Below are positions 6,092-31,800 of a stretch of DNA of 32,000 nt, piece by piece. Made by a program: the position numbers and the translations under genes. The notes below the pieces were generated by a model. The model did not search any database. It was given only the letters and a program-made list of their open reading frames with translations, and was not told the origin of the DNA. Position 1 is the first letter of the stretch. The number at the start of each line of letters is the position of its first letter. The DNA comes from an uncultured archaeon (lineage in GTDB: Archaea > Asgardarchaeota > Thorarchaeia > Thorarchaeales > Thorarchaeaceae), in assembly GCA_964354495.1 (NCBI GenBank), contig CAYHAA010000002.1:30001-62000 (forward strand). Direction: 5' to 3'.

Positions 6092-6994
6092 CTAGAGACC
6101 CAGTCGATGGAGCTCCTCTTCGAATATCCTCTGTCTATCGACTAGTCTCATTCTTTGTCCTGCAAACGCGCCAAGGTCGATAGTACCTTTTCTTGCGGCT
6201 TCGTCAAGTCTGCCAATCTCATCTTTGATTTCCTTGAGGCGTTCCCTGACAACATCGACTCTGGATGCTGCGCCCATCTCTTGGTCCGCGGTAGGAGACT
6301 GGACCGAGATTATTTGGCCATCACGAATCCTATAGATTCTGTCGCACTGTCTTGCAATCGAGGGGTCATGTGTCACCATGATAATCGTCTTGCCGTATTC
6401 CTTGTTCACCTTGTGCAAGTACTGGATAATAACGCCACCAGTTTCCGTGTCGAGATCCCCGGTAGGCTCATCGCAAAGCAAGACCATTGGATCATTCGCA
6501 ATTGCAGCGGCGATGGCGACTCGTTGACGTTCGCCCCCGGAGAGCTCATCGGGTTTGTGATCCTTTCTATCCTCGAGACCAACAACCGAGAGCAGTTCCT
6601 CAACCCGCCTCTTTCTGGTGCTTCCGTCCTTTCTAGCGGCAAGCATCGGGAGCTCGATATTCTCATAGGCAGTGAGAGTACTAAGAAGGTTCAGTTCTTG
6701 GAAGATATGGCCAACGATTTCCCGGCGAAGGGCAACTAGCTGCGTAGGATTGGCATTCGTGACATCATACCCCGCCACGACAGTCCTTCCGGCAGTGGCT
6801 CTCGTTATGCCGCCTAGAATATTGAGCAAGGTAGTCTTTCCAGAGCCTGAGGCACCAACAATGGCCACCATCTCACCTTTATTGACCTGCATCGATAGGC
6901 CACGCAGTGCCTGCACCTCAACGTTTCCGAGGCGAAACACTTTCACCAAGTCATCAGTCTGTATGTATGCTGTATTATTCATCATCTTCTCCAC
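6092..6994 (-). CDS. ABC transporter ATP-binding protein, LolD/MacB family, with a ~57 aa helical C-terminal extension
   Basis: Walker A GASGSGKT, LSGGERQ signature, Walker B LLCDEPTG, H-loop VTHD; abuts the permease stop (true start may be ATG 6985 or 6982). Confidence 0.93.
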   Translation of the reverse strand: MEKMMNNTAYIQTDDLVKVFRLGNVEVQALRGLSMQVNKGEMVAIVGASGSGKTTLLNILGGITRATAGRTVVAGYDVTNANPTQLVALRREIVGHIFQELNLLSTLTAYENIELPMLAARKDGSTRKRRVEELLSVVGLEDRKDHKPDELSGGERQRVAIAAAIANDPMVLLCDEPTGDLDTETGGVIIQYLHKVNKEYGKTIIMVTHDPSIARQCDRIYRIRDGQIISVQSPTADQEMGAASRVDVVRERLKEIKDEIGRLDEAARKGTIDLGAFAGQRMRLVDRQRIFEEELHRLGL

Positions 6995-9781
6995 CTAAAC
7001 CCTTAGTAGATCAATCTTCGATTCCGGTCTCCTTGAGGACCACCAGACAGGAATAATAGCGGCAAGGAGCACCACAGAGAGAAGTAGGAGAATCGTATAG
7101 CCTGCTGCCCCTCCTAGTGCCATTCTGTACCGGATTAGACCTGTTGCACTCTCATTCAGCGAGGCGATTTGCCCAAGGTTCTCGATATATCCCACTGCTA
7201 TGCCAAGCAGAAGTGCAAAGAAGACAGTCACCATAACCTCAGCTAGGAGCGTCTTGAACAATTGCCATTTGCTGAAGCCGCGCACTGAGAGAAGAGCTAT
7301 CTCAGCATCTTTCTCCTGTAGAGTGAGAATCACAACCAATGCAGTACCAACCATTGCGAGAATGACAGCAAATGAAATCGCCAGCCACTGTATCTTCGTT
7401 GTACCGCTTCTGATGACGCTAGTTTGATAGTCTGTTAGCTCAGTCGTGACCGAGTAACTAGCATAGACCCCGCTGAGCTCATCAGCCAGCTGTTCCTGCA
7501 GTTGGGTACCGTTCGTGTTGTCCACAGTATCGATGAGCACATTGGCAGTGGATGTATAGATCAGCAGACTGGAGTTGAGAAAGCCCTCTGACACAAAGGA
7601 TGTGTAGTCACCACCAATGGAGAACTGAAACCCTCCCGCAATTTGCTCAATTGGTGAGAGATAGCCAACAAGCCCCGCAATTGTGAGCGCATGTGTTCCA
7701 GAGGAAAATGGGGCTGCAACATTGAGTATGTCACCAACTGAGAGATCAAGTCGCTGCGCTACATCCAGCGAGAGGATAATACTGTCGTCTGTAAGGTCGT
7801 CGAACATCTGTTCGACGTCGCCAATGAACCACCCTGGTTCCCAAAATGCAATATCTCTCCATTCATCCGGTCGAATTCCTCGTGCATCTATTGTATTCGT
7901 TCCAGCTCTGAGGCTCAGTGTGTATTCTGGAGTCACATTCTGAACTGGTTCGTACTCCAAAACAGCTCCGAGCATCTCAGTCATATTCGTACCGGCATTG
8001 AGCTCGAGCCTCACATCTGCACCGACATCGTATCTAGCGGTTCTCTCAGTATAATCGTATTGTGAGTACAGACTACCTGTAGCAAAGATGCCATACGAAA
8101 CAATCAGAGCAGCTATGAAGACAAGTGTTGCATTACGAGCAGGGTGGCGTTTGATATTGCTTGTAGCTAGCTTCCCGAAGGCACCAAAGAACCTACGACC
8201 TGCAGTCATGACTGCCTCCTGGAACCTCTGCGAGCCTCGAATGAATACCTTTGTTGCGCCGTAGAGAAACAGGAGCGGACCTATACTATTCAGCACACTA
8301 TCAACCGCAAGCCAAGCAAGGATGGCAATTGAAACGAAAAGATTCCCGAAGCTTATACTGCCAAGTAGTCCATTCATGTCAATCCCTAGAGTCCAGACAA
8401 GTAGCTTGTAGGTTCCCAAGATCAAGCAGATGGTAGGCAGCAGTTTCTTGTACTCTGAGGTTTCTTCAACAAAGATGTACTGCTTGAGAGCGTCCAGAAC
8501 TTCGAGTTTGGAAGCCCGCCCAGAAGGACGCCACACTGAGAGGAGACCAAGAAACATACCTAAAATGACAGAGAGGACTACTGACACTAGATTGTCAAGA
8601 ATCGCTTGGAACATGTTCAGATTCTCGACACCTAGGATGATGTAAGCAGACGCAGTGCCAAGAAAGATGGAGAATGCTCCTGCAATCGCTCCAATGAGAG
8701 CTCCTTCCACCAAGAACATCCGTCTAATAGTCCCTCTTTCGTAGCCCTTCGTGAGTAGGAGGCCTATCTCGCGTCTTCTGAAGTTATATCCCACATCGCT
8801 GACCATTGTACCTGTGAAGTAAGCCAGAAGAAAGATGGGTAGAGACAATGCAAGAAACTGTGCGCTCATTATGAGCTGTGTGATCTGATAGACGAGAAGA
8901 CGACCCTGAAGATTCGAGGATACCTTTGCACCAAAGGGATCAGAGAGCTCGCTGATCACATCGGCTCGTCCCCTGATTCTCTCGAGCGAATTTGTAATAT
9001 CATAGGGATTGAGGTACCTTGCTCTATCCATCTGGAGATGAACTGAGGTAGTAATTCCAAGGTGAGTGTGACCACTAATAAACTCAGCCTCTCGCAAGAT
9101 AGAGTCCATGACCAGGTCCCAATCAGCGAGAAGAAGATTGTAGGAAGTATCGAAGGTGAAGGCGCGCGCACCACCGCCCAGACCTTCGAGTATCGCCATG
9201 ATTCCAGCACCAAATGACGGGATTATTGCCTCTCTGTTTCTCTCAGGCAAGTCAATGTATCCGACGACCGTGAGGTTTCTGGCTATTGTCAGTGGAGGCA
9301 TGAACAATCTGGAAACACGAATCTGAACCTCCAGTACTTGCCCCAGAGAAAAAAGTGATTCATTCCTCGAGCCCCGTACAACATAAGTTTCGTTCGCACC
9401 CAGTGATGAACTTCCTTGAAGTACCTGTATACCTGAAGCAATGTCTGAAGACATCTCTATGGCTGCGACTGTCATATTCGTGCCAGTACTATCGTAATCA
9501 AAGTAGAACTTGGATGAACGGGTGCTGTTTACAATACCGTCCACGGCATCCAGCTCGTTCTCTAGTTCATTCAGGTCGGCAATCGTCCAATTGGAGTTTA
9601 CTGAATCCACGTCAAAGTCATACAGGATGCTCTCGATGGTTGCATTGAGGGCATCCCTCGATATGATATCAGCCGCAACATTGGTGGACGCAAAGAAAGT
9701 CGTAGCTAACAGAACGCCAATGGTGAGGGCAACAAAGAGGCGATAGCTGCGAACCACTCGCTTGAAGGCGTACTTGAACAT
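6995..9781 (-). CDS. FtsX/MacB-like ABC permease (duplicated architecture)
   Basis: Two FtsX-type modules (RRREIGLLLTKG; EKDAEIALLSVRG), multiple TM segments and two large extracytoplasmic loops; SD GGAGGT. Confidence 0.88.
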   Translation of the reverse strand: MFKYAFKRVVRSYRLFVALTIGVLLATTFFASTNVAADIISRDALNATIESILYDFDVDSVNSNWTIADLNELENELDAVDGIVNSTRSSKFYFDYDSTGTNMTVAAIEMSSDIASGIQVLQGSSSLGANETYVVRGSRNESLFSLGQVLEVQIRVSRLFMPPLTIARNLTVVGYIDLPERNREAIIPSFGAGIMAILEGLGGGARAFTFDTSYNLLLADWDLVMDSILREAEFISGHTHLGITTSVHLQMDRARYLNPYDITNSLERIRGRADVISELSDPFGAKVSSNLQGRLLVYQITQLIMSAQFLALSLPIFLLAYFTGTMVSDVGYNFRRREIGLLLTKGYERGTIRRMFLVEGALIGAIAGAFSIFLGTASAYIILGVENLNMFQAILDNLVSVVLSVILGMFLGLLSVWRPSGRASKLEVLDALKQYIFVEETSEYKKLLPTICLILGTYKLLVWTLGIDMNGLLGSISFGNLFVSIAILAWLAVDSVLNSIGPLLFLYGATKVFIRGSQRFQEAVMTAGRRFFGAFGKLATSNIKRHPARNATLVFIAALIVSYGIFATGSLYSQYDYTERTARYDVGADVRLELNAGTNMTEMLGAVLEYEPVQNVTPEYTLSLRAGTNTIDARGIRPDEWRDIAFWEPGWFIGDVEQMFDDLTDDSIILSLDVAQRLDLSVGDILNVAAPFSSGTHALTIAGLVGYLSPIEQIAGGFQFSIGGDYTSFVSEGFLNSSLLIYTSTANVLIDTVDNTNGTQLQEQLADELSGVYASYSVTTELTDYQTSVIRSGTTKIQWLAISFAVILAMVGTALVVILTLQEKDAEIALLSVRGFSKWQLFKTLLAEVMVTVFFALLLGIAVGYIENLGQIASLNESATGLIRYRMALGGAAGYTILLLLSVVLLAAIIPVWWSSRRPESKIDLLRV

Positions 9782-9816
9782 GACAACTGCGACCTCCTGT
9801 GTCCCAACTGATGAAG

Positions 9817-9826
9817 TCTTATAAAC
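9817..9826 (-). promoter_or_regulatory. TATA box for the ABC permease/ATPase operon
   Basis: Minus strand GTTTATAAG, 37-45 nt upstream of ATG 9781; SD GGAGGT (plus acctcc, 9792-9797). Confidence 0.55.
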
Positions 9827-9835
9827 CGGATGGAT

Positions 9836-9851
9836 ATATCATTGATGATAT
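9836..9851. promoter_or_regulatory. Perfect 7-2-7 inverted repeat, candidate operator
   Basis: ATATCAT-TG-ATGATAT just 5' of the minus-strand TATA box. Confidence 0.4.
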
Positions 9852-9882
9852 TTCTTCGCTTCTTGTTATAATTCCGATTGTT

Positions 9883-10458
9883 TCATTCAGAACCGGCTGA
9901 CTGGCGTTGTCGATACAGGTATGCGCCGATACAAGCAATCAGACCAATACAAAGACTTGATGCGACGACATATGGCATTGTGATATTAGGGTCAACCACG
10001 GTCGTCGTTTCCGTTTGTAGTTCGACGTATTCATGGCGACTCACGCGAGTATTGTTCGCGAGATCTGTGGCAGTAATGTAGATATCATATGTACCAGCTT
10101 CCAGCAAAGCATCGAGGTTCTCAACGTAGAGAGACCCGTTGTACGTCATTAGCTCTCGGATGGTTGTATTCGGCCCATTGACATAGACACTCACATTAGC
10201 TAGGTCGAGATCATCATCAGTGACATTCGCCCATACTGTGAATGGCTCACTCATGTTTGGTCTTCCCGCAATGCCCCAGTCGTAGATTGAAGGACTCACA
10301 TCTGCCACATGAGTAGCGTGTTGGTCTTGTGTCTGAGAAACAGTCAGTATTCCCTTTGTGCCAACGGAAAGGATGAGACTCGAGAATAGAACAGCCAGCA
10401 CAAGAAATGTGAGGACATGGGAGGTTCTTCTGTATTGAGCCATCATAATCCTGCTCAT
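9883..10458 (-). CDS. Small secreted, C-terminally membrane-anchored protein with one Ig-like domain
   Basis: N-terminal hydrophobic signal/TM, beta-rich NVTDDD...GTYDIYITATDLANN, C-terminal TM followed by RQRQ. Start uncertain (10542, 10458, 10446 or 10443). Confidence 0.75.
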   Translation of the reverse strand: MSRIMMAQYRRTSHVLTFLVLAVLFSSLILSVGTKGILTVSQTQDQHATHVADVSPSIYDWGIAGRPNMSEPFTVWANVTDDDLDLANVSVYVNGPNTTIRELMTYNGSLYVENLDALLEAGTYDIYITATDLANNTRVSRHEYVELQTETTTVVDPNITMPYVVASSLCIGLIACIGAYLYRQRQSAGSE

Positions 10459-10616
10459 CTTCAATACTCTCTTAATTAGCTCGCTTGTTGACGCATTCTG
10501 CGAGGGTCTGGTTGTTCCGATGGGTCTATGCTGGAAGACCAAAAGAACACCGCAGGAATAGTCCCTGATCTAGGGCGCTGTTGTACTAACAAGATAAAAC
10601 GATAGAACAAGAAGGT

Positions 10617-10867
10617 GGGCATAGCGTCGTGCGAGCAACGCGTCGTATTGCCGCGCCACCACCTAATGATTTTGTACGCCGCATTCCAACGAGCCTATTT
10701 TGAGGTCGCTGCAAGTCGTCACCGCACGCCTTAGTGATGACGGCTCGCACCGAATTTGCTATGCCCTTGGTTCAGGAGTGATTTGGGAGCAATTGCAGTT
10801 AACCCTTACGGTTTGCGTTGGCTCGGCAGCATGGGTGGAGCAGCCACCTGGTCGACGACTGACGCAA
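10617..10867. ncRNA. Candidate structured RNA of unknown class
   Basis: GGGCATAGC 10617-25 pairs with GCTATGCCC 10758-66; GTGCGAGC 10629-36 pairs with GCTCGCAC 10743-50; internal hairpins; a second long hairpin at 10813-10867 has four G-U pairs on the + strand. Confidence 0.45.
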
Positions 10868-11208: not shown

Positions 11209-13026
11209 ATGCGAGTGTACCTTGATGCGAACTTCTTTATCAGTGGCTTTTCGGACCGACCAAAAGATGTAGCAATAATCAAGAAAGCGGCAGACAAAGT
11301 CGGTATCGAATTATGGATTACAAGACAGGTATTCCAGGAACTGCGTTGGTACTTGCGACGAGAGGTCGAAACGATGATCCAAATCGATGAGACACTATCC
11401 AAAGACATCAAGGCTTTGACGGAGAGCATAAAGCGCCCCGAAAGCTCGCTTCCTCAACCTAATGACATGTCCCTAATTCTTGCAGCAATGCGCTCTAAGA
11501 GATCCAGGATTGTAACAAGCGATATGAAGCTGCTCAATACTATTCAAGATCTCAAGGTAGAAGTAGAGGGGATTGTTGGCTCTGCATTTGTCCTCGAGCT
11601 GATGGAGCTTGCAGATAACGAGGAAATGAAGAAAGCGCTCTCGCCAATTCGAGACAGAATCTATTCTGAGGAAGTCAGGTATAGTATTTCAAGGCAGGAG
11701 TCTTATGATCCTGTGACTAGAATTCGGGTCATTGAGGATCATGCGCTTCGTGTGCTCAGGGCCGTAAAGAGACCCGCAGAGGGGCTAGACAAACAATTGG
11801 CGAAGGGGCAGCCATTGTTCGTCCTAGACTTCCTTGAAGATATCAAAGCAGGCATTCCGAACATGTTTGATGATTTCCGTGAGGGAAGGTATGATCCTCT
11901 AGCGCTTGAGATAGACGCAGTTCAAAATGAAATTGAGCGTTTGCTAATTGTCTCGACACTGACTGAGGAATCAGAAACTCATGGTAAGCTTGTTCGTCAT
12001 GCAGCCGACCTCACGCTCTTTCTGTATTATCTCGAGATGATTTGCCACATGTACAGAGGTACACGCGAAGGAATAGAGGACGCACTAGCTGTCAGCGAGG
12101 AAGCCTTTCGTTTACTCATGTTTGCAGAAGTACAGAACGACGAACTCAAGGCATCAGTTTTCTTCGTGAGAATACTTCTGTCCCTCATTCGAGAGGACTA
12201 TGATGAGATTGACTATTTCTATAGCCTCTATGATTCGATGATTGGTAGATTGTCTCTTGACAGTATGATGGAGACCACCGAGGGTTTCTACATAACAATG
12301 CAGGTGCTACGGTCAGAGGTCATGGGCGGTTTCAGTCTCACAAAGACAAAGCTACAATTCCCTGACGTGACAATGGCAATGCTCAACGACATAGCGAAAT
12401 ACAGTCTTCTCTTTGAAGACCATGATAATGCATGGCAGCTAGCGGTTGCAGCCTACAAGATTGGTGTGGCATACAACAGAGAAGAGGGTGCAGTCAATTC
12501 ATTCCGAATGCTCTACAAGGTATCATCTTCATCTCACGACCGATTCAAGCCCGCACTAGAGAAAATATCGGAACACGCGCTGAAGGCCTTTGTAAAGAAG
12601 GGATGGAATACAAATATGGTCACTCCAATTCTGAACGAAGTTCAAGGCGAGTTTCCGCCTATCGATAATTTGGCAACAGGAGGGCCAGTGGCGTTCAAGT
12701 CGATTCGCGATGAACTCAAGGGCTGGATGGACGTCCTAACTCTGGAAACAATTGATGGAGAAGAGGTCCTGATGGTGCGAAACGAGAGGTTGCAGGCCAG
12801 AGTGGCCATTATGACCAAACACCATCCTGAGCTCAGGTCTTTGAAGACGGGACATAAGGTCGCCCTTACAAAGGGCAAATTCGATGTCTCGAATGCAAAA
12901 GCTGATGTGGTCAAGAGGTACTCTATAGTATTGATGATTGAACCAAGTGAACAAGCAGAGATATCATATGAAGGAGAGTATGGATTCTCCTGCCTCAAGG
13001 TGGCAGTCCCCGAGACTGAAGCATGA
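11209..13026 (+). CDS. PIN-domain protein with long helical region and beta-rich C-terminus
   Basis: PIN acidic quartet YLDAN, VFQEL, PNDMS, VTSDMK in the first ~130 aa; the remainder is unassigned. Confidence 0.8.
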   Translation: MRVYLDANFFISGFSDRPKDVAIIKKAADKVGIELWITRQVFQELRWYLRREVETMIQIDETLSKDIKALTESIKRPESSLPQPNDMSLILAAMRSKRSRIVTSDMKLLNTIQDLKVEVEGIVGSAFVLELMELADNEEMKKALSPIRDRIYSEEVRYSISRQESYDPVTRIRVIEDHALRVLRAVKRPAEGLDKQLAKGQPLFVLDFLEDIKAGIPNMFDDFREGRYDPLALEIDAVQNEIERLLIVSTLTEESETHGKLVRHAADLTLFLYYLEMICHMYRGTREGIEDALAVSEEAFRLLMFAEVQNDELKASVFFVRILLSLIREDYDEIDYFYSLYDSMIGRLSLDSMMETTEGFYITMQVLRSEVMGGFSLTKTKLQFPDVTMAMLNDIAKYSLLFEDHDNAWQLAVAAYKIGVAYNREEGAVNSFRMLYKVSSSSHDRFKPALEKISEHALKAFVKKGWNTNMVTPILNEVQGEFPPIDNLATGGPVAFKSIRDELKGWMDVLTLETIDGEEVLMVRNERLQARVAIMTKHHPELRSLKTGHKVALTKGKFDVSNAKADVVKRYSIVLMIEPSEQAEISYEGEYGFSCLKVAVPETEA

Positions 13027-27100: not shown

Positions 27101-28863
27101 GCCTGAACCATCCAACTGCCGGCTGGAGCAGACGATCCATCAAGCACAAATGTCGTGGATGTTGCATATCCGGTTCCGTTAGCGACTGGCTTCACAGTCA
27201 ACCACTCAAGCCCGTCTGGTCTGTATATGGTGATGTTGACAATCGATCCAGAGAAATCAGCGCCTACGTAAGCGCGCACTCTTGTCGTATCGCCAGCTCT
27301 GAGGGTAGGAGTACGAGTCCAACTGCTCGTATCTTGATCCCATAGCTCCAAGTCAGATATCATGTTTGGGGAACTGCTCAGAACTCGCCAATATCCGTAT
27401 CTGCCAGGCTCACTAGTGATATCATAGGTTGACACGTTGAGAAAGCCATCATTTGGATTACCTCCAGTCCAGCCGGATGTAAGATTCGTTGTCGGCGCGA
27501 GCGGCTGCCCAACGAAATAGACGTCTCGTGCTGCAGGAATTGTCTCATTGAAGAAGTAGCGATTCGCATATCCCACGGGGATGTCTGCCCTGAAGTACGA
27601 TGTAAAGTCGGTATCCGTTCCGTTTCTTACGACAAACCTCTCACCGTATGCTAACGGACTTATCTCGTAAAGGCTTTGTATGTCATAGTGACGTGCGAAT
27701 AGGCCGACTGCGACATCAAAGTCGACTCGAATCTCTTTGTTTGGACTCGGCGTGGACGGAATCGGAGTCCATGAGAAGGTGAGGACGACAGGTGAAGTAG
27801 TCCAAGGTGTGGCAGGAATCTGCGTTATTGAGCATGTCCCGCGTGAGGCTCCATTGCTGATGCTGAGACCATTCATCTGTAGACTTAGTTCACTCGGATT
27901 AGCCAAGGTCTTCAAGTACAGCTCGATATTATCAAACCTTCCCCGAGGATGAATATTGGGTTCATAACCCACCGCTGCAAGCGATTCTAGACCGATTCGT
28001 GTGGTTGCTGTCGTATCGCCAGGTAGTCCAAAAACAGACGGGTTGACAGTGATCAACCCCGAGTTGTACCATGTTTCTTCAGCTCCGATATCGCCGAATA
28101 CTTTTCGCCAGACGTCAGTACCCTCAATATTCGCGATGAGTCGAAACGAGCCAGTCATTCCATAGTGAGTATCATCTACTGTGTCCGCCCAGTAGTCTAG
28201 GCGTAGGGCCGCCCAGACCACTGTCCCGCGAGTTACTGTCGTTGCCTGTTGATAGGCGGCAATATCGCCGTCATCATAGTAATAGGTAGAACCGCCACTT
28301 GTGGAGTCTATATCGACCAGTATGCAATCATCATTCAATCCGTGCCCATCATTGAGCCATGATGATGTTGGAACGCTCGAGCCAGCAACGTTTGTGTTTG
28401 ACACAACCCAGTCAGCAGCGCTGTCCTGAAACCCAGGATTCGTTATCCAGGTTCTGTTCTCAGTCAGGCTTGAAATTTGCACTCTGGCTTCATAGGCTTC
28501 CCAACCAGTACCCATGTAGACACTCGTCTGGACTGTGGTTGTGCCACTGCCTGGAGTGTACTTCATTTGCCGGCCGAGGAAGGTATTGGTGCTGTTTCCG
28601 AATTCTGAACCGACAATCGGGTCACTGAAACCGCTCCATTCCGTCCAGCCTTGGTCTGTCAGGACAAACTTGTGCAACTGCTCATAGGGCGCAAGTTCCA
28701 CGAACTCGCCATTTCCGATATCAACCTTGCGAGTATCGTCAGAGGCGCCAGCATTCAGCGTAGGAATTGTTCGTAGAACCGATGCCTGCGGAGCAAAGAT
28801 TATTGGAGCTACCATGAGAGCTATCAAGATTGCCAGTGGTAATAGGTGTCTGATGTCTTTCAC
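21109..28863 (-). CDS. Giant (2584 aa) single-pass surface protein: signal peptide, ~600 aa tip region, ~17 Ig-like repeats, TM, 184 aa cytoplasmic tail
   Basis: N-terminal hydrophobic signal; beta-rich ~100 aa repeats; about 40 N-x-S/T sequons by manual tally; TM near 21664-21740; charged helical tail. Confidence 0.9.
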   Translation of the reverse strand: MKDIRHLLPLAILIALMVAPIIFAPQASVLRTIPTLNAGASDDTRKVDIGNGEFVELAPYEQLHKFVLTDQGWTEWSGFSDPIVGSEFGNSTNTFLGRQMKYTPGSGTTTVQTSVYMGTGWEAYEARVQISSLTENRTWITNPGFQDSAADWVVSNTNVAGSSVPTSSWLNDGHGLNDDCILVDIDSTSGGSTYYYDDGDIAAYQQATTVTRGTVVWAALRLDYWADTVDDTHYGMTGSFRLIANIEGTDVWRKVFGDIGAEETWYNSGLITVNPSVFGLPGDTTATTRIGLESLAAVGYEPNIHPRGRFDNIELYLKTLANPSELSLQMNGLSISNGASRGTCSITQIPATPWTTSPVVLTFSWTPIPSTPSPNKEIRVDFDVAVGLFARHYDIQSLYEISPLAYGERFVVRNGTDTDFTSYFRADIPVGYANRYFFNETIPAARDVYFVGQPLAPTTNLTSGWTGGNPNDGFLNVSTYDITSEPGRYGYWRVLSSSPNMISDLELWDQDTSSWTRTPTLRAGDTTRVRAYVGADFSGSIVNITIYRPDGLEWLTVKPVANGTGYATSTTFVLDGSSAPAGSWMVQAITNNLGADGERTSVGLFKRPFGVVHASDIVLIYPNDAVGTMVTNVTFGDLLLIILEVEDTDSYSPTVLVPGGTMTLDWSLGVGTFDDNGNGQYTKVIDTSGLSRSGQYVMDLEWTHPYFDSSSTDLTINVNYAATLASPDYPGISGPVGDDQSFTAVFANVNGTGISEGNLWCDWSNPYTVVSLGMGQFEFQLDVSGMEIGEYPVRVYATGSFVEPQTMLMYVEAREIYTSITYTSNQLSIPLGEASSFLLTWTDTDHGTPITGSSSSITCNWTSFHISGDTNYTVVETLPGKYNITIFTKSSDPLTGSDFIDVRFNVMKDDHLNHTFDIAVEIRKRNTLFVLDAPIVQTPYGSTITVLVFYQDTELRVGIGNFTGEVRLTMTSPEIGSIVCSVAQSSLGLGHYNVSIPSDQWGSIGWKDLYILIEWTGIVDKFYSQTIDTSARITGTDTDLYLELAPTATYYLNTFNFTVIYWDTVSLQRISNSTDNVFLRITALDAGNSVTQSDFTVIESESVPGTYVFILDSSLFSSTDTFRFELSFMWRKGQSPLYENGTMVVSLILLDRPTYVDYTPVASTPYGEQAEFLFSFVDTLTSLKIGESIQLDIDLNDAGVTFTYSYNPATKEFTLYIDTASIGSVGTHVLHLNLTWTGAPFYASIQSKTFSVNVVTRATQLSHLSFSLGQWGNNITIVFVYTDIIAGSATGMTGTLTLNIPADKYTVVYSPEGRFIVTLNTTAFPADGIYSVTAAVVHTYPYYANAVEVFDISVLKRSTQLGYDSPDRAPYSSNLTLYVTYVDDSTGRGIPGAAIAVSGNGSYALVLNSNYWFKYVGDGRYLIEVDTTALGAPGYYLLTVTVTFIGEPFYLPGSRDVLARVTTRTTQILITQTPGSVSFLENVVLRFKFTDYLLGTKIAITKSHITLTHGPLYTVIASGSYTLNEYSTYYEIVFNSTIISPDALVTGHPIQMTIDLGPGVPYYAPRSTSTTASTVERSTQILFPLVEDTPYFDNITIELSYVDYLTGAGIDDAQLLITSGNWSSPQYTLVRQGDGNYRILINSSIFGYTGIVFFDFTLSKSGAPFYSTRITLAVPATIREVQTSLIADAPPAGSTAVGAPIVVVITLVDFDHDLPLSGAVISSDWTTLFGRSYSVAELGNGVYTITLNTTGLLAQRYDFHAYANKPFYQTALAEIFVQPGAATVEIFLERSTYYAEWGELVNITFQVLEPYYSTPVTGMTASLLWDGMLYGFSEVGNGYYTLLVDSSDTDFGVYSPQISVTKQYYQPRQRTFNLIVSKATGQIIPDFSTYEVVIDTSIDVQLYLNDTVSAMSVTTATVTMEFNGTVYPLSHLGGGVYSANLLVYGFAVGQYPLTLRATSVNHVFLETIIGINVVPIYTELKLASGVTVLTVYFGDTLSILAVYNDTFYSALVGGADVSYTIGSLTGVLTEETNHTYSAVIDVSSLPSQSIYLRLTASKFGYSTATKSIIVTILPIPTSATVDEGSTLESGYFGAPLSFKFYYDDLQHYVGIGGANVIASWEGGTPTVTDYDNGTYRVDLVITVTTPGIYDLVVRFNLQNYTARTAIARIEVYATPAAIYGPTTYSSPINDTIVIPYHVKNMLDNSTISDVIGIAYSADLGEYELLLMPNGNYTLNLPGDLQYETYGFDIYFATTKYTMSPIHLDVIIRRIMTAAVHGNLTIQIQPGVSFSFTTTYMDLDHNIPITGGSYSLELDLNLFTYYNQSTLDEDGTYTFYFLLTQGGTHAIIINIVKEGYDAQQIRLVIKSDISAEQAFQQLVTFAGGSGVLIVALLLVGYVKVWSIPKQIRIMSRMIRALAKGRVPKAPKSPTRQDMAMTIVNEEIASLHLVKPREDVAPEPIVTTVPEVNELLEELASITGLGEAEIDAFRADLSRMRASERPGFLKEVIDQEKARRADVLAKPVKVVAKKEEVPLQDMPGELDDLRKKLLKKGMASDEIDIIIEEAKGLSKADLDALLDSLGISLD
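21745..27024 (-). repeat. About 17 tandem degenerate ~100 aa Ig-like protein repeats
   Basis: Recurring pattern T-x-L...Y/W-G...Y-x-D...I-x-G-A...G-x-G-x-Y-x-I-x-I-D/N-T...F-Y; no clear nucleotide-level repeat. Confidence 0.75.
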
Positions 28864-31800
28864 TCTTCCGACCCTCCTATTTCACGAAGTAGTGCGTCTA
28901 TCTCAGCTCTAGATAGATTGCGAGCCTGCTCGATCATGAGGTCTGCCTCAGTTTCCGCAATTCCCATCTTCATCAATCGCTCCTTGAGGTGTCTGAGCTC
29001 CTCATTAGAGAGCTTCTCAACTTCGATGCTTGGGCGTTTCTCGGGCGTGACGCCCTCAGTCTCGGCAAGCTCCCTAGCTCGCCGAGCACGTTCCTGTTTC
29101 AAGACTTCATTGATGAAGCCGGCACGTTCACTCGGCCTCATCTGGTCGAGATCCCTCCGAAGGGTATCAACATCGCTTGCGGTCAGACCAACCACAATTG
29201 CGAGGTCTTCAAGCAGAGCTTCGACATCCATTGCGGCAACATCGACTGTCGAAACTGAAATGTCCTCAATGGTCTTAACTACGGCTACACCTGCAAGTTC
29301 CTCTTTCATCATGGCCAGCAGCATATTGCGTCGTACTGGAACATTCGCTGGTTTGGGAATGCGGCCTCTCCCAAGAACCGACACCATGCGTCGCAGAGTC
29401 CGAAGCAGCTTTGGAACTGATAGTACCTTGATGTACAAGGTTGCAAGAGCTGCCAGTGCCAACATACCAAGTGCAGAGAACCCGAAGGTCCTAGCAAGTG
29501 CTAGCTGCGCCGCGCTCAGTTCGGTATAGATATCCAGTTCTACTGACGAAGTCTGATAGTCCGCCTTGCTGAAATCGATGCGAAGGCTATAGAACGCCAA
29601 GTTGGGGGCGCGGAAAGCAAGTGTATAGGTCCCGTTGCCCCAGTTAATGTCCAGATTATATTCCCTGATAATTCCGTCATCAATAACATTAATGATAGCA
29701 TCAGTGATCATTGTGTCATGGTCCTTATCCCAAAATGTGACATTGATAAGGAAGACATCACCGACATAGATGTGTGAGGGTGGCTCAGTATAAGTCTTAT
29801 CTGTCAGGATTCGCCGGATGGTCAAATAATGCTCAATCTCCATTCTCGAGTAGTTTGCTCTTGAGAGAGATATTCTGATTCTGTAGGGGAGATCTCTGTA
29901 TTGAAGAGGTGTCGCCAGATTTGTTTCATTCGGCCCAAATACATACGAACCATTTCCGAGATTCGTTAGAGTAGCAGTCCCGAATTCCCACACAGCAGTG
30001 GCGACAGCGTCAGTAACCCATGCATCATTGAGGGTGTCTCTAAAATTGAAAAGCATTGAATAGTTGTCATATACTGGATACTCGGCTTCAAGAGGACCTT
30101 CTATTTGTGTGGGGATGGGCATCACAAGCAGTTTGGCAAGCCCGTAGGCGAACCTGTAGTTCTCTTTCCTGAAAGTCAAAGATATGTCGTGTGGTATCGC
30201 TCCAGCTGATGCAATAGACGTATTCAGAGTAAGACTGTACGTCCCATTTGCATAATCCACAAGCGATCCTCGTGTTTGCTCCAGAGTGTAGTTCGTGATT
30301 GCGCCCGCTATTCCTTCGTTTGCATGAGTGTCATTGAACAAGAAGTAGAATGTCACAATCTCACCGTAGTAGCCTGCAATCGTACCACTAGTGAGGATCA
30401 CAATCGCAGTTTCGATTTGTTCAACTGTCAATGTGAAGTCAAATTGAGACGGGGTGAATCCCGGTTTAACACTGGATATGGATACAGTCCATTCTTGCAC
30501 GCTGAGGAATGATGTGTCAACGAAGGCGCTGTAGTAGCCAGGAGTTGCCAACTCTACTAGACTGCCAACGATGGAGCCCACCCCAAAACTGAGAGTAGCG
30601 CCATCGACAGGCAGATTGAGATCAGTATTGTTCAGATACACGGTGATAATGACAATATCCCTGTAGTTGCCTGAGATTACTGTGTTGGAAATTGGGACGA
30701 GCTGCGTTTTTATCTCTGTAATCTCAATTGTCACCACAGTGCTAACGCTCTTGTAGTTAGGGGAGGAGGCTTGGATGAGAATATGGTGGTTGCCAACCGG
30801 AGCGCCATTCACTACAAAGGAACCAACATATTTGCCATCGATGGCTGACCAGTCAATGAAACCGCTGCCGCCAACCCAGGAGAATTGAACTAATCCGTCC
30901 ACTGAGATTGGAAGGCTGGTAGCATACTCAAGGTAATCAACATAGACCGTGACTGTCTCACCGTTGACAGCGGAGATTGGATCGATGGACGCAACAATCT
31001 TCGCAGCGATTTTTTCTATGCGGATCTGGAAGTCCCGCAGCGCTGTTTCGTAGTTGACCAGAGAGGACTGCACTCGAATCGTGTACTCACCTGAGGTCAA
31101 TGAAGAAGTGAGAACGGTACAATTGTACAGACCATCAGCCACGGGTGTCATATCGAAGGTCAGTAGACCAATCGTCAGATTGACATCTGCTCCAACAACT
31201 GGGAAGCCCGTCCTAGCATCTGTGATATTTGCTTGGAACTCCACACTATCGCCCCACATGGGACTCTGAGGAGTGAAGATCAGCTCAAGCAAAACAGGCA
31301 CTGCCGCGAGAAGAATGTCCGCCTCAATACTCTGACTCAGATGGAGGTATTTGCTTGCATTCACAATGAACCGATATTGCTGAGCATTGAGTCCAGAGGT
31401 GTTGATTGACATCTGGTATATGCCAGGTGCTATTTCCACAATAGTGGTGTCAGTCCCGTATCGTGTGAACCAATCAGTTGTTATGGTAGCACTTGGTACT
31501 CCTGTGCCAAATGCAATGGCTGTGTAGGTGATGTTGGCATAGACCATATCGCCGAGATAGTGTGTGACTCCCTCGGGCAAAACAAAGCTCAGAGTCGTGG
31601 ATACTGGATTCACGGATATGCCGAATTTCACACCAATAACGTCGCGATAAAATGGACTGCCAGACCATGTGAAATTGGCTTGGAAGAAGTACCTGCCAAG
31701 GCCAGCTAGACTATTCGAGTCCACAATGACCGCGTAAGTACCATCAGAATTGTCGATAATCCAATAGTCAAAGCTCGATGTGTTCGAGCAGCTCACGCTG

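Follow-up and report, generated by a model that had tools for sequence, protein, structure and literature searches.

A structured RNA of one Thorarchaeota family with ends that resemble those of tRNA

No known prokaryotes are more closely related to eukaryotes than the Asgard archaea, and to our knowledge almost nothing is known about their non-coding RNAs. Among described systems, the RNA examined here is most readily compared with tRNA genes and tRNA-like RNAs, such as the tRNA-like domain of tmRNA and bacterial YrlA, and with riboswitch aptamers built around multi-helix junctions, such as those of the SAM-I, cobalamin and lysine classes. Integration is also known to occur at tRNA and tmRNA genes, with the same pattern of insertion that we describe below. 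Non-tRNA RNA genes that serve as integration sites include that for tmRNA and, as reported in PMC12540744, ffs (4.5S RNA). A further point of reference is provided by the orphan structured ncRNAs from comparative-genomics motif surveys (such as PMC2864571). Like these, the RNA at the present locus is defined only through covariation and conserved context, and it is lineage-restricted. It differs from the orphan RNAs in being specific to a family of Asgard archaea (Thorarchaeota), in being absent from Rfam 15, and in combining a tRNA-like terminus with a tRNA-like gene layout.

The locus lies in a window of 32,000 nucleotides, the whole stretch of DNA that was analysed. The original prediction for this DNA described nested stems at 10617–10766, richer in GC than their flanks and located in a long gap between divergent genes. 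All named stems are found at these places, the gap measures 750 nt, and the RNA contains 58% G+C compared to 45–50% for the window. The predicted bounds are right for the outer stem, but the true element extends from 10614 to 10766 and includes an invariant ACC beyond that stem. This gene of 153 nt starts with 5′ GGGC at 10766, ends with GCCCACC at 10614, and coincides exactly with the match of our covariance model R1 (138.8 bits). Both strands fold better than shuffled sequence, with a minimum free energy of −64.1 kcal/mol (z = −3.38) and a nearly identical centroid structure on the minus strand, and −54.6 kcal/mol (z = −2.68) on the plus strand. The plus strand reading that was implicit in the prediction did not hold up. 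In the model-based alignment, 225 G-U cells stand against 29 A-C cells in the minus sense; mismatches that appear as C-A when homologues are read on the plus strand are G-U on the minus strand. RNAalifold assigns −42.1 kcal/mol to the minus sense and −18.7 kcal/mol to the plus sense. These counts and energies show that the RNA is encoded on the minus strand and is read from 10766 down to 10614. The homologues all start with GGGC or GGGU and end with CCCACC. Their lengths range between 147 and 188 nt and show no three-base periodicity, which speaks against a coding function.

The secondary structure was written on an alignment of 51 loci (49 distinct) produced with R1. An earlier version of the structure partly guided this alignment; the outer pairs of P2 and the lower pairs of P4 are absent from that earlier model, and they covary nonetheless. 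Among the 49 distinct homologues, 93.9% of the paired cells contain standard pairs, and 37 of the 43 pairs show compensatory changes on both sides. The covariation score of 0.58 compares to 0.08–0.12 for controls with slid partners, and none of 500 shuffles reached the observed values. The top 19 pairs ranked by mutual information all fall within the proposed helices. Mutual information revealed no tertiary pairs, because the loops are invariant. These observations, which include the covariation among homologues that had been proposed as a check on the prediction, show that the fold, in which P1 and an internal loop lead through P2 to a four-way junction that bears P3, P4 and P5, is under selection and not due to chance.

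All parts of this fold are given in minus-strand sense. P1 is a helix of 9 bp between RNA nucleotides 1–9 (10758–10766) and 142–150 (10617–10625), with 98.2% of its cells paired and double changes at six of nine pairs. G1–G3 and the last three C residues of the opposite strand are invariant, while pairs 8 and 9 covary. The invariant ACC tail (10614–10616) is single-stranded, and the next base is T or C, but never A, in every copy for which the flank was read. An asymmetric and variable internal loop separates P1 from P2, a helix of 8 bp between nucleotides 17–24 (10743–10750) and 131–138 (10629–10636), in which all eight pairs show double changes. The 3′ strand of P2 abuts the 3′ strand of P5 without a linker; the other linkers of the four-way junction are CG(A) between P2 and P3, CUUG between P3 and P4, and G between P4 and P5, and the junction bases are invariant. 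Hairpin P3 (nucleotides 27–51, 10716–10740) contains top-ranking mutual-information pairs, shows double changes at seven of eight pairs, and carries the invariant block UGGCGUGCG in its loop. In the consensus register, the window copy has one A-C mismatch in this hairpin. P4 (nucleotides 56–80, 10687–10711) comprises covariation helices 4 and 5 and a conserved A-rich loop, CAAAAU, with an invariant A-run. The long hairpin P5 (nucleotides 82–130, 10637–10685) is paired in 98% of cells, has double changes at nine of ten pairs, and ends in the apical block AGGUGGUGGCGCGGCAA (10648–10664), an invariant set of alignment columns. Two homologues deviate at this apex: L106 has an insertion of 30 nt between GGUGG and GGCGCGG, and L095 lacks UGG.

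We then asked how widely this RNA occurs. By BLAST, 26 of 36 genomes from the window's family contain the element, with similarity spanning approximately 10604–10817. Among 151 sampled Asgard genomes, 24 of the 26 members of this family contain the RNA, against none of 124 genomes outside it. A larger sample of the family contains 63 positive genomes among 80, including 21 of 23 genomes of high quality and representatives of all 16 genera. A scan of genomes for the sequence pattern returned chance bacterial matches beside those from Thorarchaeota. In viral contigs, a 16-mer scan produced 53 matches, which we attribute to chance because none fits the covariance model. Each genome contains one copy, including the 3.3-Mb genome of the window, a Thorarchaeota MAG; the sole exception is G013, with a second, partial copy that is cut by a contig end. 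Two family genomes, G035 (97% complete) and G036, as well as G037 from a sister family, give no match to the RNA even at E = 1, and the copy in G194 is truncated. The absence of the RNA from a high-quality genome such as G035 and the truncation in G194 show that the RNA is not strictly essential.

The prediction had assigned the element to no recognisable class, and searches for described RNAs agree with this view. Rfam 15 (4227 families) gives no match in the window at the gathering score. Even at E-values up to 10, no match overlaps the RNA in the window or at 18 homologous loci. ARAGORN finds neither tRNA nor tmRNA in the window, and the tRNA covariance model RF00005 has 26 matches in the genome, none of them at the RNA. 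To account for a possible intron, we removed single segments of 8–109 nt, and ARAGORN called no tRNA in any of the shortened sequences. We rejected an assignment as tRNA on the basis of these results together with the covarying P1 of 9 bp, the internal loop, and the lack of a T-loop, a D-loop and a 7-nt anticodon loop. An assignment as tmRNA was likewise rejected in view of the ARAGORN result, the lack of a tmRNA match in Rfam, and the lack of a T-arm beside the 3′ strand. The housekeeping RNAs of this genome are encoded elsewhere (RNase P RNA on contig C7, SRP RNA on C3, 5S rRNA on C24), so the element is none of these, in line with the original remark that it lacks their consensus sequences. 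No match to Ro60 (TROVE) was found in the genome and no Y RNA match in Rfam, which argues against a Y RNA and sets this RNA apart from YrlA. A probe for the conserved 3′ region of 16S rRNA, used to follow the idea of a Shine–Dalgarno or anti-Shine–Dalgarno mimic, has no match in the assembly, and we found no description of the RNA in the literature. The element is a lineage-specific structured RNA outside any described family. With strong covariation and no match in Rfam, it fits the proposal of a novel ncRNA or cis-regulatory RNA.

The flanks of the RNA resemble those of tRNA genes in the same genome, which carry a TATA-like box approximately 25–35 nt upstream and a pyrimidine-rich trailer. 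A BRE/TATA-like box (AAGG-GTTAAC in RNA sense, 10798–10810, minus strand) ends 31 nt before G1. Variants of this box (TATAAC, TATATC, TTTAAC and TTTATAC) occur 23–36 nt upstream of G1 in most genera. On the other side, a pyrimidine-rich trailer with oligo-T runs (10590–10613, minus strand), presumed to be an archaeal terminator, follows the ACC in all homologues with flanks read. These elements show a gene laid out like a tRNA gene, with a putative BRE/TATA box upstream and a pyrimidine-rich trailer after the 3′ ACC. A scan for sigma-70 promoters was disregarded as irrelevant to an archaeal genome. The likeness extends to the RNA itself: G1G2G3/CCC followed by ACC equals the acceptor ends of tRNA-Glu, tRNA-Ser and tRNA-Met of this genome without the final A (an acceptor end in this genome reads, for example, GGGC...GCCC-A-CCA). 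As in tRNA-like RNAs, the four-way junction has no linker before the closing helix. Unlike tRNA-like RNAs, this RNA has no T-, D- or anticodon loop, possesses a terminal helix of 9 bp with an asymmetric internal loop and a further helix behind it, does not encode the final A of CCA, and escapes both the tRNA finders and the tRNA model. We understand the tRNA-like reading of the terminus as a resemblance only.

Expression data were limited to Logan contigs, namely two short metatranscriptome contigs of low depth from different studies. These contigs cover 10521–10760 and 10624–10866, and both extend past a predicted end of the RNA; they carry neither strand nor ends, and DNA carry-over is possible. 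Upstream of the TATA box of the RNA, the plus strand contains a hairpin at 10813–10867, and similarity to relatives of the same genus stops near 10817. Farther upstream, the motif CACGCTGGAGTTTCGCC is common to one subclade only and is absent from the subclade of the window.

Downstream of the RNA and on the same strand lies a conserved operon (6092–10458) which, according to Pfam matches, encodes a MacB-type ABC transporter. It consists of genes for a small Ig-like secreted protein of 191 residues (9883–10458), an FtsX-type permease (6995–9781) and an ABC ATPase (6092–6994). Of 49 genomes that contain the RNA and the permease gene on one contig, 47 have the permease gene downstream of the RNA and in the same orientation. 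The distance between RNA and permease gene has a median of 993 nt, which corresponds to the small Ig-like gene, and ranges from 9 nt to 8 kb. Some genomes have gaps of 63–104 nt with no intervening gene, and the 9-nt gap belongs to G194, in which the RNA lacks its 3′ third. Two family genomes without the RNA (G035 and G036) were checked and also lack the permease gene. Between the RNA and the first gene of the operon, and not part of the RNA, is a further module (10471–10498, minus strand) composed of ATGCGYYAAC, a spacer of approximately 10 nt, and the TATA-like CTAATTAAG. This module is kept across genera at 15–39 nt before the ATG of the Ig-like gene, and it reads as the putative promoter of the operon together with a regulator site.

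The genes on the other side of the RNA were considered as partners as well. A PIN-domain protein of 605 residues (11209–13026, plus strand; Pfam) is the constant divergent neighbor within the genus of the window, and it is 66–88% identical across the family. Since full-length relatives occur in 74 of the 151 sampled Asgard genomes, this protein is a conserved protein of the housekeeping type and not a toxin. It was rejected as a specific partner because it also occurs in families without the RNA and is often encoded far from the RNA in other genera. Other upstream neighbors (FG-GAP, histidine kinase, solute-binding protein) were dismissed because they are heterogeneous between genera.

In approximately 18 genomes, the RNA is separated by 1–8 kb of unrelated genes from an operon that is nevertheless kept. 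Among the intervening genes are those for an M3 peptidase, an MFS transporter, NosD-like and LRR proteins, and two-component systems; a few genomes have a convergent gene as the next one after the RNA. The RNAs of these insertion-bearing genomes keep the invariant blocks and show compensatory changes among exactly these genomes. These observations show that the RNA gene stays intact when unrelated DNA is inserted directly behind it. In G001, G018 and G005, the inserted DNA carries on its far side a copy of the last 23–46 nt of the RNA plus the trailer. Such left-behind 3′ copies have substitutions at otherwise invariant bases, while the complete RNA copy is not decaying. Decaying partial copies with trailer bound insertions at L123:6501–6523, L125:4770–4806, L126:6088–6120, L131:9948–10022 and L132:7407–7429, and the insertions delimited in this way measure 1.4–3.4 kb and lie behind the RNA gene in relatives. 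From the substituted copies on the far side, we infer that the insertions entered the 3′ part of the gene and brought or rebuilt an intact 3′ end, and that the old end decays. The 3′ end of this RNA gene is a recurrent insertion site with duplication of the 3′ end, a property that it shares with the genes for tRNA and tRNA-like RNAs. The arrangement of inserted DNA directly behind the gene, bounded by a copy of its 3′ part, also corresponds to that at the tmRNA gene and, as reported in PMC12540744, at ffs. In contrast to those examples, no integrase was found among the ORFs scanned in the inserted islands, and no viral contig contains the RNA sequence. A different rearrangement is found in G194 (L135:1712–1880), where approximately the last 50 nt of the RNA are deleted between two TCATTA repeats. 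This deletion joins the shortened RNA to the upstream region of an intact permease gene, and it could represent a real loss or a variant in a MAG that is 73% complete.

After establishing the fold and its surroundings, we turned to the question as to what kind of gene this may be. The reading that we favor, and that we hold to be reasonably probable, is that 10766–10614 on the minus strand is an independent gene for a structured ncRNA of approximately 153 nt, a new class confined to one Thorarchaeota family, with a tRNA-like end and a function in trans. The main rival, which we consider unlikely, would make the RNA a cis-regulatory leader of the MacB-type ABC operon, a riboswitch-like aptamer in which closure of P1 beside the U-tract would set readthrough. 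The anatomy would suit such a role. Like riboswitch aptamers, the RNA is approximately 150 nt long, its P1 closes a four-way junction with near-invariant unpaired bases and loops and abuts a U-tract, and it precedes a transporter operon encoded on the same strand. One of the two RNA-library contigs reaches from a point close to G1 to 93 nt beyond the 3′ end. Moreover, upstream neighbors vary while the downstream operon is constant, and the tight linkage to the permease gene and the co-absence of both from G035 and G036 remain real arguments for a cis-regulatory or other functional tie to the transporter. Against a leader stands the conserved TATA-like box with its upstream motif between RNA and operon, which gives the operon a promoter-like module of its own. 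In the insertion-bearing genomes the RNA is still under selection even though unrelated and sometimes convergent genes separate it from an operon that is kept, and in G194 the 3′ third of the RNA is gone next to an intact permease gene. Furthermore, P1 is invariant at its outer end and not at the junction-proximal end as in most riboswitches, and no Rfam riboswitch matches the element. The promoter-like module of the operon, the retention of the RNA despite insertions, and the decay of the old 3′ ends favor a stand-alone gene, and the evidence leans to this side. A mobile-element relic (a MITE or an att site) or an RNA from the plus strand, with conservation that reflects a function at the level of DNA, appears highly improbable. 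The terminal inverted repeats of 9 nt and the partial copies nearby in a few genomes could be read in this way. However, the compensatory changes maintain five helices, the G-U pairs are strongly strand-asymmetric, and the partial copies derive from this very gene as displaced 3′ ends rather than being dispersed elements. The MITE alternative offered in the original prediction is further contradicted by the copy number of one per genome at one conserved position, and no dispersed copies with target-site duplications were found.

The resemblance to tRNA may also be taken literally. As a functional tRNA mimic, the RNA would gain a terminal A and might be aminoacylated, or its UGGUGG loop would bind tRNA 3′ ends, with a role in translation-linked sensing or quality control. 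We regard this as quite improbable. The identity of the invariant terminus with three acceptor ends of the genome less the final A, the cloverleaf-like junction (a linker of 2–3 nt after P2 and none between P5 and P2), and the insertion pattern known from tRNA and tmRNA genes are consistent with a mimic, and UGGUG, as read from the sequence, is complementary to CACCA. On the other hand, ARAGORN and RF00005 are negative, no single deletion yields a tRNA, the 9-bp P1 with its internal loop is foreign to tRNA, T-arm and D-arm and the corresponding loops are missing along with a 7-nt anticodon loop, and the terminal A of CCA is never encoded. A related and bolder idea, for which we see little probability, is that the RNA is an Asgard-specific copy of an acceptor end that is matured by the tRNA machinery and perhaps CCA-tailed or charged, with a UGGUGG loop that reads tRNA 3′ ends or its own tail. 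If so, such a copy would amount to an archaeal equivalent, acting in trans, of the RNAs that sense tRNA in the manner of T-boxes or tmRNA, and it might be linked to the control of the neighboring exporter.

For the favored stand-alone gene, we surmise the following sequence of events. The primary transcript would start 0–13 nt before G1, and transcription would end in the U-rich trailer. The transcript would then be trimmed at the foot of P1 to the tRNA-like end, G1G2G3/CCC followed by ACC, probably by the machinery that processes tRNA ends, that is RNase P, 3′ trimming and perhaps addition of the last A. The resulting stable RNA would act in trans, and the invariant G-rich loops UGGCGUGCG and GGUGGUGGCGCGG together with the invariant terminus may provide binding surfaces for a protein or another RNA.

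All 16 sampled genera of one Thorarchaeota family retain the RNA, which belongs to no described class. This RNA supplies a new covariance model for the annotation of Thorarchaeota genomes, a concrete target for end mapping, RNP pull-down and structural work in enrichment cultures, and an example of a non-tRNA RNA gene with a 3′ end that serves as a repeated insertion site. Should it prove to be a riboswitch or a sensor of tRNA ends, it would represent a rare archaeal case.

Several observations on other RNA genes in this genome were made along the way. ARAGORN detects 33 tRNA genes, compared with 26 for the tRNA covariance model; many of these genes are 105–139 nt long, which indicates that they contain introns. 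None was detected for Asn, Ile, Phe, Thr, Trp, Tyr or Val in this 97.7%-complete genome; these tRNAs probably contain unusual introns or are unassembled. The full-length SRP RNA on C3 scores just under the Rfam gathering threshold (91.6 versus 96.5), and a second, partial archaeal SRP RNA match (C3:174398–174504, 35.7 bits) lies approximately 1 kb away. Finally, C7 carries two full-length matches to archaeal RNase P RNA (28603–28942 and 31249–31574, with 157.5 and 110 bits) on the same strand and approximately 2.3 kb apart, an unusual tandem pair.
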